Shown in pieces: positions 52,709 to 57,074 of a DNA stretch of 64,000 nucleotides. A model generated the notes under the pieces. That model had not been told where the DNA came from and ran no database searches. It saw only the letters and a program-made list of their open reading frames with translations. Origin of the DNA: Escherichia coli (GTDB lineage: Bacteria; Pseudomonadota; Gammaproteobacteria; Enterobacterales; Enterobacteriaceae); NCBI RefSeq assembly GCF_003334255.1, contig NZ_QOWU01000005.1; one strand, written 5' to 3'. Positions within the stretch are counted from its first letter, which is position 1. The number at the start of each line of letters is the position of its first letter. The position numbers and the translations under genes are program-made.

Positions 52709-53779
52709 TTATTTAATCCGGGCCATCGCGTTTCTCAGTGCCAAATCTGCCTCTTCCGTTATATCCAGGCTTTTCTGCAATACCGCCTCTGACCGGGTCA
52801 GTGCCTGACGTGCTGCCAGCGGTTTCCGGATATGCTCCATCGCCAGCATCGTGTCTTCATAGCCCTGCTGACGCCAGGCGTCGGTATGTGCCGATGTAAA
52901 ACTGAGCAGACCGCCGCTGTTGCCACCATCACCTGCATATTTCAGCCTTTTCCGGGGACGGATCTCAAGGATTGTGGTGTCCGGAAAAGCCTGGCGATCC
53001 CATAAAGAACCGTCACTCAGATGCGTCACAATCACCATATTGCATCCGGCATCGACCAGAGGCGTCACAGGGGTATTTCCCTGCATATTTCGCCATCCTC
53101 CCATACCACCATCACCGAACATTGTCCCCTGAACCTCACGGGGACGGAACAGCAGGGGCAGCGCGGCTGACGCAAGCAGAGCCTCTTTCTGCTGTCCGCG
53201 GGGCAGGCTCTGGATATGCTGAAAAACGGCGTTTTTCGTGGTTCCGACACCCAGTTCAGCACGAATGCAGTCAATAATATCCTGCATGCCCCCTTCTGTG
53301 GGGTACAGCGACACATACAGCGGTAGCCCGTCTGCCAGAGCATCAGTATCAAGATAATGATCCATCAGCGCTGTCAGGGGCTCATCTGACAACAACGGCT
53401 GAGCCATCAGATTGTCAAACCCGTTGATTGTCGATATATGGCGAAGAAGCGTCGTAAGCAGTGCTCCTGCACGTCCGGGGATCTGGCAGAGGTTCATTGC
53501 CTGGAACAATTTTTTCAGCAATGAAAAGTAAACCAATCTGTTTACCGACAGCACCTGATTATTCCCCAGATGATCCCAGAGCGCCTCCAGGCGTACGGCA
53601 GCTTCTGACAGATCGGGAGAGGCCGCGATAATGGCACCATTGAATGCGCCAATGCTGGCCCCTGAAACCATGCTGATCTGTGTACCACACTCTGCCAGTG
53701 CCTTAACCACTCCCGCCTGATAAGCGCCCACCGCCCCGCCACCGGACAGCACCAGCCCCGTTTTCATTTCTGTACTCAT
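52709..53779 (-). CDS. Patatin-like phospholipase
   Basis: 356-aa ORF with all three patatin signatures: glycine-rich oxyanion loop (GLVLSGGGAVGAYQAG), nucleophile elbow GxSxG (GASIGAFNG) and catalytic-Asp DGG motif (FGDGGMGG). Confidence 0.85.
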   Translation of the reverse strand: MSTEMKTGLVLSGGGAVGAYQAGVVKALAECGTQISMVSGASIGAFNGAIIAASPDLSEAAVRLEALWDHLGNNQVLSVNRLVYFSLLKKLFQAMNLCQIPGRAGALLTTLLRHISTINGFDNLMAQPLLSDEPLTALMDHYLDTDALADGLPLYVSLYPTEGGMQDIIDCIRAELGVGTTKNAVFQHIQSLPRGQQKEALLASAALPLLFRPREVQGTMFGDGGMGGWRNMQGNTPVTPLVDAGCNMVIVTHLSDGSLWDRQAFPDTTILEIRPRKRLKYAGDGGNSGGLLSFTSAHTDAWRQQGYEDTMLAMEHIRKPLAARQALTRSEAVLQKSLDITEEADLALRNAMARIK

Positions 53780-54681
53780 GCAGCCCCCTTCTGAAATATT
53801 TCATCGACCATACTTTCAGAGAGGCGTTCTGCAGAGCAGAGGCGAGGCATGCGAACCGGTAAGTGTTCTGCAGCCTGCGTGGTTGACCAGATCACCGGAT
53901 GCTGCTCTTCACTGCACCAGTCTCCCAGCCAGTTAATCGCGTCATGCCACTCGTTATCTGCCTGCTCCCGGCCCTGACCACCAAGCCAGTCCAGAGTGTT
54001 CAGACGCACGGTTGCACTACCGCCACTCTCCTGTGCCATCTGCGTTAATGCTTTATGTCTGAGAATATCCAGTAGCTGGTTAACCTGGCCTGTTTCGCTC
54101 TGACGTATCACATCACCAAACGCGCCCCAGCGAAGCTCTTCAAGTGCCACATAACAACGTCCGGCAGGGGAAAATGACGCATATCGCCCGGCGCTCCACC
54201 ATGAGAATATCTGCTCAAGATGTAACTGCGCCCGCTGAACCTGGTCAACACGGTGGAGTTTTTCTTCAAGATGATTCAGTTTATGGTGAACCTGATCGGC
54301 CAGGGTGAGTAACTGCTCCCGCGTATCTGCGGAATAATGCGCCAGCCTGGCTGTATCACTGACCAGTGAACTGACCCTGTCGTTTACCCGGGTAATCGCG
54401 TAGTTTGTGGTGGCAAGTGACGTTGTCATCTCCGTCAGCCAGCGCAGGGACGCCTCAACGCCCTGTGCAAGCGACGCATTGATGGCATTCTGCCGTGCAG
54501 CGCCTTCGCCGGTCAGCCCCTCTTTTAAACGCCGGAAGAACGTGCGCTCTCCGGCCGTGCGGATATGCTCCTGTGCAACATCGATTCCGTTTGCGAAATC
54601 AACCACAAATTTTTCAGGAAGACAGGTGAGTACCTGACATACCCGGTTATCAGCAATTTGTTGAATAAATGGTGAAGTCAC
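53776..54681 (-). CDS. Hypothetical protein, middle gene of the dynamin-like/patatin operon (predicted helical/coiled-coil)
   Basis: 301-aa ORF with 4-bp start/stop overlaps on both sides; no recognisable catalytic motif. Confidence 0.6.
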   Translation of the reverse strand: MTSPFIQQIADNRVCQVLTCLPEKFVVDFANGIDVAQEHIRTAGERTFFRRLKEGLTGEGAARQNAINASLAQGVEASLRWLTEMTTSLATTNYAITRVNDRVSSLVSDTARLAHYSADTREQLLTLADQVHHKLNHLEEKLHRVDQVQRAQLHLEQIFSWWSAGRYASFSPAGRCYVALEELRWGAFGDVIRQSETGQVNQLLDILRHKALTQMAQESGGSATVRLNTLDWLGGQGREQADNEWHDAINWLGDWCSEEQHPVIWSTTQAAEHLPVRMPRLCSAERLSESMVDEIFQKGAA

Positions 54682-57074
54682 AGCATTGTCTCCAGCTCTT
54701 CCCTCAGCGCCTTACTGTCAGTAATGAGCTCAGGAACCCTTTCATTTAATGCCTGAAGTCGCCCGGTAAGCCGTTCCTGCGCCTGCTGATCGCGTTTATG
54801 ATCTTCAGAGCTCTGAATCAGCGTGTTACGCAGTTGTTCAACTTTCTCCCTGAATGCGCAGAAAAAGGCATCGATTTCCTGGCGGACGGGCTGGTTAATA
54901 TCCTGCTCAATGGATGCCTGCAGCTCCCCGAAATATGCCCGGGTCAGTGACATAACTTCCTCTCTGACCTTGTTGATATTGATCACGCTGCGACTCACAT
55001 CCTCGTCATAGTTTTCCCAGCCCAGGTCACTGGTGCCAAACCATCGACAAACGGTTCCCCATACGCCACTCTGCCGACGGCGACGGGTGACGGTCTCCGT
55101 TCTTTCCTCCATAAGCGCACTCAGATTTATTTTTACCGCGAGCCGGGTCTGTAACTGGCTGACTGCCGGAAAACTGATTTTTACGGTAAAGCCCTCATCC
55201 TCCAGGCGGGCATTGATGCGACCGGCAATGTTTTCTGTGGCGTACAGGGCCGTGCCACGAAAACCTGTTTCAATCCCGCTGACGATTTTCTCCAGCTCAG
55301 GCCGGAACTGTGCTTCAGCCTCACGGTGCAGGCTGGTCACGGTCGATTCGATTTGCGTCATCAGTTCAAGGGCTTCCCTGCGATCACTGAATTTTATTTC
55401 GGGGCTGTCCGGGGCAAAATCTCGTTTCCTGTAATCCTCCCGGCCCTGGTTGTTGATACCGGACCATTGAGAAATTTTCCCCCATAATCCGGACTGAGAC
55501 CTTCGTTGTTCTGCGTCTTCTTCCTCCAGCATTTGCTGTTCTTTGCGTTTACCGCTTCTGAAATAGTCATTCAGCTCCTCTTCCAGTGAGGTGCAGACCC
55601 CCGTCAGTAATTCCCGGGTTTTAGTATCGATCTCCTCCATGGCCATTCTGACATCAGTGGTCATCTGCTCCTGACAGTCCGCGATTTCCCGGATATCCGC
55701 AAGCAGGCTGGTGATATGCGACTGCAGTGACTGAATGCTTTGCTGTAGCCCCTGATGGCGTAACAACAGGTATTCACTGATATTTTCTGCATTCTGCATC
55801 AGTTTTGCGGCGGCAGAGTCAACCGCCAGTGCCGCAGCTCTGGAATGTGAGCTCTGTATGACTTCCGTTATCAGTTGATCGATAAGTGAGCCTTCCCACA
55901 GGTCTGTCGCCCCTTCAGTTGCCAGTTCACTGTCTTTACAGACGTATTCTTTTTTCATGCAACCGAAGGCACCTCTGATAAAATCATCGACCCAGGCTTC
56001 ATCAACAGGAAGGGTTCCGTTTTTCCGTAACTCATGAAGCGCACGGTTAGCCAGGTATGCCTGGCGTGAGGATCCGGGATAAACGCGGGAGGCGGGCAGC
56101 ACATCGCTGTTCAGCATTGCCGGAACTTTCTGGCGTACGGCATCTGCCCCATCGCCATTGCGGTCTTTCTCATCAAATTTATTGACCAGTACAAACAGGC
56201 GGCCGGCTGATACGTCAGCAATGGCATTAAGCTCTTTACGGACGTCTTCATCCGCTTTTGAGTTCATCTGGGTGTAATCCATCACAGCCAGAACCGCAGA
56301 GGCTTTCTGCAGTTGATCCCGCATCATCACTTCCATCTGCGGTTGTCCGGCCTCATTAGGGCCGGGGGTATCCAGCAGTGTGAGTGTTCCCTGGCATGCA
56401 TCCATCCCCACCAGATGGCTGAATTCCACGTCGATCACCGGCAGTTTCTGCACTTCTGCGTATTCATCAAAAGGAAATTCAGTCCCCATTGCCGCAGCAA
56501 GACGAACCAGATCGTTTAACGATGCCAGTCCGGTAAAGATTTCCTCCTCCCCGTGGTATTCATTTTTGAGCCAGCCATCATCCGTCAGAATATCCAGCAG
56601 TTCGCGGGTATCCCCGGTTTGCTGCAGGGTCTGTGCGACCTGCTGTCCTGCCGGGGTGGCGAGTTTTTCCTGCAGTGTGATTAATAAATTGCGGACAGGC
56701 TGAATATGTTCCAGATGGAGAACCGGCTCAGTTTTTCCGGGAACGTGGCGGATGAGCGTCGGTACAGAGGTCATGGGGCGGTTACGGTTAGGCAGAATTT
56801 CCTGCCCCACAATGGCGTTGATGGTGGTTGATTTGCCTGCTTTCATCGTGCCGACAACAGCCAGCACCATCTCCCTGCGGGCGGTTTTGATTTGTTCGCC
56901 CTCCAGCTCCTCAATTCTTTTCAGTGCTTTCTGTTTATCAAAAAGCAGTCTGTTTTCGTTCTTACTGTCAGATAACACATCTGGCTCCTCAACCATTTGC
57001 CGGAGCAGATTAATGTTCAGTTGCAAAAGTCGGTCGGCTTCATCACAAAGCAGGGCGATGTTCTTTTCGTGCAT
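54678..57074 (-). CDS. Dynamin-like large GTPase (bacterial dynamin-like protein)
   Basis: 798-aa ORF with G1 P-loop (GTMKAGKST), G3 (LLDTPGPNEAG) and G4 (VLVNKFDEKD) motifs, followed by ~500 aa of predicted helical stalk/paddle-like sequence. Confidence 0.85.
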   Translation of the reverse strand: MHEKNIALLCDEADRLLQLNINLLRQMVEEPDVLSDSKNENRLLFDKQKALKRIEELEGEQIKTARREMVLAVVGTMKAGKSTTINAIVGQEILPNRNRPMTSVPTLIRHVPGKTEPVLHLEHIQPVRNLLITLQEKLATPAGQQVAQTLQQTGDTRELLDILTDDGWLKNEYHGEEEIFTGLASLNDLVRLAAAMGTEFPFDEYAEVQKLPVIDVEFSHLVGMDACQGTLTLLDTPGPNEAGQPQMEVMMRDQLQKASAVLAVMDYTQMNSKADEDVRKELNAIADVSAGRLFVLVNKFDEKDRNGDGADAVRQKVPAMLNSDVLPASRVYPGSSRQAYLANRALHELRKNGTLPVDEAWVDDFIRGAFGCMKKEYVCKDSELATEGATDLWEGSLIDQLITEVIQSSHSRAAALAVDSAAAKLMQNAENISEYLLLRHQGLQQSIQSLQSHITSLLADIREIADCQEQMTTDVRMAMEEIDTKTRELLTGVCTSLEEELNDYFRSGKRKEQQMLEEEDAEQRRSQSGLWGKISQWSGINNQGREDYRKRDFAPDSPEIKFSDRREALELMTQIESTVTSLHREAEAQFRPELEKIVSGIETGFRGTALYATENIAGRINARLEDEGFTVKISFPAVSQLQTRLAVKINLSALMEERTETVTRRRRQSGVWGTVCRWFGTSDLGWENYDEDVSRSVININKVREEVMSLTRAYFGELQASIEQDINQPVRQEIDAFFCAFREKVEQLRNTLIQSSEDHKRDQQAQERLTGRLQALNERVPELITDSKALREELETML

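Follow-up and report, generated by a model that had tools for sequence, protein, structure and literature searches.

A mobile operon of a dynamin-like GTPase, an RdcB-family protein and a patatin-like phospholipase in Escherichia coli as a candidate effector-bearing relative of the RdcA/RdcB switch

Why should a dynamin-like GTPase and a patatin-like phospholipase be encoded side by side, with a third protein between them, on a genomic island of Escherichia coli? The question is raised by positions 52,709 to 57,074 of a 64,000-nucleotide stretch of E. coli DNA (RefSeq assembly GCF_003334255.1, contig NZ_QOWU01000005.1), the whole of which is called the window here. A preliminary description, made from the letters alone, had taken the three genes, hereafter the trio, for an undescribed antiphage module. 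Our analysis indicates that the trio is best placed among the dynamin-like GTPase switches of the RdcA/RdcB class, as a new variant that also encodes an effector, and that it is not a system of the Eleos type or of the cyclic-oligonucleotide-based antiphage signalling system (CBASS) type.

All three genes are read from the minus strand. Gene 1 (57074..54678) encodes a dynamin-superfamily GTPase of 798 amino acids (aa), a full-length paralogue of RdcA, which is also named CrfC or YjdA. Gene 2 (54681..53776), with a GTG start, encodes a 301-aa partner of the YjcZ/RdcB family, and gene 3 (53779..52709), with an ATG start, a 356-aa patatin-like phospholipase. These are the same open reading frames (ORFs) that had been pointed out before, and the identical three genes are annotated by the NCBI Prokaryotic Genome Annotation Pipeline (PGAP) in 100%-identical E. 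coli genomes. Chance ORFs are no concern, because all three are long and have strong homologues. Two ATGA overlaps had been proposed. The one between genes 2 and 3 stands, the ATG of gene 3 overlapping the stop of gene 2; the junction of genes 1 and 2 reads GTGA instead (ctGTGActt), with the GTG start of gene 2 lying on the stop of gene 1. Stop/start overlaps are conserved among trio loci. That the trio is a single translationally coupled operon and one functional unit is held much more firmly than the overall model of its function given below.

The product of gene 1 belongs to the dynamin superfamily by its Pfam Dynamin_N match, its G1–G4 motifs and its helical stalk, and the motifs reported earlier are in place: GTMKAGKST at aa 75–83, DTPG at 235–238 and NKFD at 298–301. 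Residues 1–797 align with positions 1–736 of the 742 in the NCBIfam model of CrfC, YjdA or RdcA (NF007368, expect value (E) 1.2e-166), and identity to K-12 RdcA is 33% over 744 residues. Since the score of 556 bits falls under the curated equivalog cut-off of 1146 and the identity is 33%, the protein is a paralogue-level member of the family and not an equivalog. G1–G4 are invariant across all full-length trio dynamins, and so are K81 and T102, the equivalents of RdcA K82 and T103. In the structure model, a mitofusin/SynDLP-like G domain is joined to a stalk. The tip of this stalk (aa 505–570 and 655–699) carries a variable basic/hydrophobic insert (aa 505–570) in trio dynamins that the RdcA of the core genome does not have, and a Trp-rich stalk-tip motif (RRRRxSGVWGTVCxWF..DWGWExY) is common to both. 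In several E. coli lineages, O145 strains among them, the dynamin gene is split by an insertion sequence (IS) of the IS66 or IS3 family, and the RdcB-like and patatin genes remain intact there (for instance NZ_CP024815.1 and NZ_CP028379.1). An unrestrained patatin is evidently tolerated in these lineages.

The middle protein had been regarded as lacking any recognisable domain, which proved mistaken: Pfam YjcZ (PF13990) matches it end to end (residues 26–296 on model 1–272 of 272, E 4.7e-70). Its identity to K-12 RdcB is 30% (E 2e-37), and PGAP names it a 'diguanylate cyclase regulator RdcB family protein'. AlphaFold2 models it as a helical protein whose C-terminal domain (residues 130–300) is predicted with confidence, and a search of the PDB with that model gave no informative fold match. 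The YjcZ family is small: clustering of 1.84 billion proteins at 50% leaves 496 representatives of it. Phage genomes gave no homologue of the RdcB-like protein.

The product of gene 3 matches Pfam Patatin (PF01734) over residues 9–239 (E 7.4e-24). The full patatin signature noted earlier is present, with GGGAVG at 13–18, GASIG around Ser42 and D223-G-G, so that the Ser-Asp dyad is intact. GGGAxG, G-x-S42-x-G and D223-G-G are invariant in 32 orthologous patatins, the block 221–280 is the most conserved stretch of the protein, and the patatin is the most conserved of the three trio proteins. ExoU, VipD and PlpD are the nearest solved patatins by local matches only, the similarity to VipD (E 9e-6) and ExoU (E 4e-3) being confined to the N-terminal glycine-rich and GxSxG region. 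At residue 17, E. coli and E. albertii carry Val (GGGAVG), 25 of the 32 orthologues carry Lys and 5 carry Ile.

How constant is the arrangement? One genome per GTDB species was scanned with the YjcZ alignment, which gave 79 loci, and a locus was called island-type when it scored higher to the island RdcB-like protein than to core RdcB. A patatin gene lies directly downstream at 29 of the 29 island-type loci versus none of the 50 core-type loci. All 50 core-type loci are in Enterobacteriaceae. The island-type loci are found in Escherichia albertii, Pantoea, Erwinia, Budvicia, many Pseudomonas, Chromatiaceae, Gallionella, Comamonadaceae, Aquaspirillum, Macromonas and others, and the trio spans Gamma- and Betaproteobacteria. 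Independent look-ups gave the same order of Dynamin_N, YjcZ and Patatin in Pectobacterium, Pseudomonas, Methylomonas and Allochromatium, as well as in four of the most divergent (metagenomic) representatives of the family. No alternative third gene that would mark a swappable effector was found; a patatin is present at every island-type or divergent YjcZ locus examined. The pairwise identities of the three proteins correlate with r of 0.84–0.89, and the three co-evolve. Within the species, the trio occurs in 2443 of 5426 complete E. coli genomes (~45%), in up to 5 copies per genome, and core rdcAB in 5405 of them (99.6%). The three-gene arrangement thus recurs outside the strain in which it was first noticed.

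The K-12 pair offers the closest guide to function. RdcA interacts with RdcB as well as with the MASE1 domain of the diguanylate cyclase DgcE, which it activates (Pfiffer et al. 2019, PMC6510439). GTP hydrolysis is needed, since T103D, in which the catalytic Thr is lost, abolishes the interaction with DgcE, and K82A is still functional; in the authors' model nucleotide-free RdcA is the activating form, favoured when GTP falls (PMC6510439). RdcA was described as a soluble enzyme regulator and not a membrane remodeller (PMC6510439). The trio shares with rdcA/rdcB the same two families in the same order, the overlapping stop/start and alignment over the full length of both proteins, with the P-loop Lys and catalytic Thr kept. 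It differs in its third, always-linked patatin gene, in the tip insert of the dynamin, and in being accessory and mobile, on plasmids as well, whereas rdcAB is core.

Which of the two forms came first? In a neighbour-joining tree of the dynamins, built with no outgroup root and no support values, core RdcA forms a clade whose sister is the trio dynamin from Budvicia, and which lies amid trio-bearing lineages. The tree position, the tip insert, the shared Trp motif and the genome distribution together suggest that the trio is the more widespread form and probably the older one, and that core rdcAB would be a patatin-less derivative rewired to DgcE.

Likeness to known defence systems is more limited. 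No system model of PADLOC-DB v2.0.0 is matched by any of the three proteins, weak local matches apart, so the trio corresponds to no system named there. Eleos, which Millman and colleagues reportedly introduced in 2022 as a dynamin-based anti-phage system, consists of LeoA and LeoBC; it resembles the trio in having a dynamin-superfamily GTPase as its large subunit and in being island-borne in E. coli with a defence-island association. Membership was rejected nevertheless, as the LeoBC match of the trio dynamin (E 8.6e-5, 19.8 bits) covers residues 29–89 around the P-loop only and LeoA gives no match. The neighbouring YeeP-like GTPase (57292–58203, minus strand) has weak PADLOC matches to LeoBC (E 1.4e-8) and LeoA (E 1.7e-4), and is closer to Eleos components than the trio dynamin is. 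Similarly, in CBASS with the effector CapV the presumed output of a module of several genes is a membrane-degrading patatin-like phospholipase, as in the trio. Membership in CBASS was also rejected, the score to CBASS_lipase (NF041079) being 18.3 bits against a cut-off of 200; the PADLOC phospholipase effector match to the patatin (E 1e-4) is local only. No cyclase (CD-NTase) gene is annotated or called at the loci examined, and therefore the trio patatin would be activated by a protein partner and not by a cyclic nucleotide.

Patatins switched by partners are familiar, with the GTPase Rab5 as the allosteric activator of VipD and ubiquitin as the activator of ExoU. With the same fold and Ser-Asp dyad, and the dependence on a partner that is proposed for the trio patatin, VipD may serve as a precedent for a GTPase switching a patatin. 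VipD and ExoU are secreted effectors acting in host cells, whereas the trio patatin has its partner encoded within its own operon, and the three trio proteins all look cytoplasmic. The dynamin also shares a G domain and helical stalk with the fusogenic bacterial dynamin-like proteins (DLPs) DynA, SynDLP, IniA, Cj-DLP1/2 and BDLP, from which it differs in having no paddle or transmembrane region and in having a dedicated YjcZ partner. In sequence it resembles BDLP at the P-loop only.

The surroundings of the trio are those of a mobile element. In the window it occupies the CP4-44 slot after the YeeP-like GTPase and before a DUF932 gene, an antirestriction gene, yeeS (RadC/JAB), yeeT and cbeA/cbtA, in agreement with the CP4-type cargo placement proposed earlier. 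K-12, which does not carry the trio, has isrC-flu-yeeR in this same slot, which is therefore a variable cargo position. Elsewhere the trio is cargo of CP4-type islands and of integrase-bearing islands, and in Allochromatium it is an insertion between ileS and lspA. A 62%-identical variant recurs on many conjugative plasmids (IncFII and others) of Klebsiella, Enterobacter and E. coli; one of these, L092 on the K. pneumoniae IncFII plasmid NZ_CP147596.1 (9773–13991), is flanked by IS1- and IS30-family elements. The constant identity of this variant to the trio of the window, together with its IS flanks, suggests recent spread between genera.

Defence genes are frequent among the neighbours, as judged by PADLOC scans of sampled neighbour genes. 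A complete JukA/JukB pair lies directly past the patatin gene in Erwinia, and JukA homologues are found at two more loci. In Pantoea eucrina, BrxC of BREX is located 2 kb downstream; a type III methyltransferase is near the E. albertii trio, type I restriction-modification genes are directly downstream in P. putida, and PDC-S24 and a DEDDh exonuclease flank the trio in HdN1. WYL-domain regulators stand just upstream in at least 10 loci, with a gap of only 12 bp in Gallionella. Altogether, a defence gene or a WYL regulator lies within 8 kb at about half of 31 species-level loci, a partial sample with no background control.

The operon has been seen before, from a different direction. A 2026 transcriptomics paper reported it as strongly induced in a lysogen of the Kapi1 prophage, noted the ~30% identity to RdcAB and the absence of any literature link between the components, and speculated on phage defence (PMC12922286). 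No functional study of the trio was found in full-text literature searches. The trio is thus already noticed and known to be transcribed, and it is uncharacterised. High 'mutation' counts given elsewhere for crfC, rssA and yeeP (PMC7696260) were not used, as they probably reflect mis-mapping among paralogous island copies.

How might the three proteins work together? We propose that genes 1 and 2 encode an RdcA-like/RdcB-like switch whose output is the patatin, where the K-12 pair has DgcE. The GTP-bound complex of GTPase and partner would keep the lipase inactive. A fall in the GTP pool through infection or stress, or alternatively a membrane or infection cue, would act as the trigger, upon which the complex would assemble, possibly at the membrane by means of the stalk-tip insert and the Trp-rich motif. 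Phospholipid hydrolysis by the patatin would then cost the cell its membrane integrity, as in an abortive-type defence. We put the chances at about even that the trio is such a mobile three-protein module with a GTPase-gated, cytoplasmic phospholipase A as effector, most likely a stress- or phage-triggered membrane-damaging defence. An anti-phage abortive role taken by itself is a lesser though real prospect. The most specific form, an unnamed abortive-type anti-phage system in which a sensor of GTP pool or membrane state releases a patatin to destroy the inner membrane, with RdcA/RdcB as its domesticated effector-less descendant, is put forward tentatively and could well be wrong. The proposal is supported by homology and strict synteny, by catalytic sites that are intact, by the co-evolution of the three proteins, by mobility and by the frequency of defence-type neighbours. 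The interpretation given in the preliminary description is borne out in part.

Several points weigh against the GTPase-gated lipase. Its role in defence and as a lipase switch is proposed from homology and context, and the GTP-depletion trigger would be an extrapolation from a paralogue of 33% identity. The defence neighbours were sampled without statistical scoring; none was detected at L005, L088 and L089, which lie among ordinary chromosomal genes, nor among the tested neighbours of L012, L015, L025, L028 and L031. No transmembrane or strongly hydrophobic segment is present in any of the three proteins, and for this reason membrane targeting can only be supposed. The conserved basic residue of the GGGAKG oxyanion motif has been lost in the Escherichia lineage. 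Finally, the IS insertions in the dynamin gene mean that the module is dispensable.

Alternatively, the trio may serve membrane maintenance or repair with no suicide involved. The dynamin and its partner would remodel or seal the inner membrane, as DynA of B. subtilis does, the patatin would provide local lipid remodelling (lysolipids, curvature) or clear damaged lipids, and any effect on phage would be delayed lysis and not abortive infection. The closest solved folds of the dynamin are indeed fusogenic DLPs, namely Fzo1, mitofusin-2, SynDLP, IniA and Cj-DLP; a DynA-type protection at the population level is the working idea of PMC12922286, and some trio loci are chromosomal and outside islands. 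However, a paddle or hydrophobic membrane-insertion segment is missing, the paralogue RdcA is a soluble enzyme regulator, and travel on islands and plasmids beside WYL, restriction-modification, BREX and Juk genes fits an accessory defence better than housekeeping. We regard this explanation as unlikely, though it fares best among the alternatives to the GTPase-gated lipase.

The homology to RdcA/RdcB over their full length and the PGAP naming invite another explanation, that the pair feeds cyclic di-GMP and biofilm control through DgcE or other MASE1 proteins, with the patatin as an accessory or second output. At one locus, L027 of a proteobacterial metagenome-assembled genome, membrane-anchored GGDEF proteins (3009–4226, plus strand, and 9632–10771, minus strand) even stand on both sides of the trio. 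Yet this is 1 of 31 trio loci with a GGDEF neighbour, identity to the K-12 pair is only 30–33%, and the tip insert is missing from core RdcA. The link to the patatin, moreover, is invariable, and this protein is better conserved than the other two; the trio also occurs in many taxa beyond Enterobacteriaceae, to which all recovered core rdcAB loci belong. Such a signalling role appears improbable.

Equally improbable is an addiction or competition module, in which the patatin would be a latent toxin restrained by the GTPase pair, stabilizing the island or plasmid or acting on competing elements. The tight coupling of the genes would agree with this, and so would their carriage on CP4-type islands that already have cbtA/cbeA and on IS-flanked plasmid segments, as well as their induction in the presence of another mobile element, the Kapi1 prophage. 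However, if the GTPase were a simple antitoxin, the frequent loss of the dynamin to IS elements with the patatin intact would kill the cell, and the module is large for an addiction system. A role in virulence, in vesicle or toxin release (the function suggested for LeoABC in enterotoxigenic E. coli) or as a secreted patatin toxin would suit the presence of the trio on pathogenicity-type islands such as PAI-CFT073-aspV and the local matches to ExoU, VipD and PlpD, but there is neither a signal peptide nor a secretion-system neighbour, the LeoA/LeoBC models do not match, and the trio is found in free-living Gallionella, Methylomonas, Allochromatium and Macromonas, which leaves very little room for it.

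Candidate expression signals can be read around the operon. A putative sigma-70-like promoter (TTAATA-18 nt-TATCAT) lies at 57185–57156 on the minus strand, and three operator-like repeats of AACGATCG(A/T)T, each with a CGATCG palindromic core, overlap it at 57132–57173 on the same strand. A ribosome-binding site, AGGAAGG, precedes the ATG of gene 1 by 8 nt. Seventeen nt past the patatin stop, at 52673..52692 on the minus strand, is a terminator-like hairpin (CACCGCCTGTGGTGGTG then TTTTT). Promoter, repeats and hairpin are matches to consensus only, and the ribosome-binding site is likewise a match of sequence. The AACGATCG repeats are kept in E. albertii (L009) and absent upstream of the trio in other genera, and were accordingly rejected as a family-wide feature in favour of one conserved in Escherichia only. 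They may form an operator that responds to the inducer of the operon in prophage lysogens. Read-through past the hairpin is possible, because five co-induced genes on one island are reported in PMC12922286.

Could further genes belong to the system? Directly past the trio are two low-GC ORFs on the minus strand, at 51890–52573 (227 aa) and 51464–51874 (136 aa), both secreted-looking, the 227-aa product having two signal-peptide-like stretches (MKLPVKLLMSLISLVSVIARA, MKRLHTLMLFLAVLFTRFNFNAEA) and a CKANTCGWDF loop. Past both ORFs, at 51322–51293, is a strong terminator-like hairpin. On the other side, upstream of the YeeP-like GTPase, is a 387-aa ORF (58248–59411, minus strand) that PGAP calls hypothetical. 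These three ORFs lack NCBIfam and PADLOC matches as well as homologues at other trio loci, and all were rejected as members.

At about six to seven beta- and gammaproteobacterial loci, a small ORF of 60–86 aa encoding a zinc ribbon (MPIxPxPxxYxCPxCGWxKxVxPxSDALxPGEYFxxCPxC) adjoins the trio, usually just upstream of the dynamin gene (L005 6697–6918, L012 ~3100–3262, L017 5208–5426, L019 4868–5098, L013 4312–4506, L023 3991–4251). It is absent from the window, and may be an optional fourth component. In Erwinia sp. S63 (L036, 67–5471) and at L011 (79–5483), a cluster of three genes for proteins of 287, ~660 and 857 aa abuts the trio on its upstream side. The largest product (857 aa), an SNF2-type helicase, matches PDC-M27C, DrmD and DpdE locally, and the cluster may be another uncharacterised defence candidate.

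Were the GTPase-gated lipase confirmed, nearly half of sequenced E. coli would carry a widespread defence or stress module not represented in PADLOC-DB v2.0.0, and one that is spreading on plasmids of Klebsiella, Enterobacter and E. coli. It would give the poorly understood RdcA/RdcB class of dynamin-like switches a second and simpler output. The signal sensed by RdcA would then become directly testable through a lipase read-out, instead of a subtle c-di-GMP phenotype. It would also be a case of a core regulatory system born when a mobile effector module was domesticated, or of the opposite course. Even if the model is wrong, the strict linkage of three genes over two proteobacterial classes would still need explaining.

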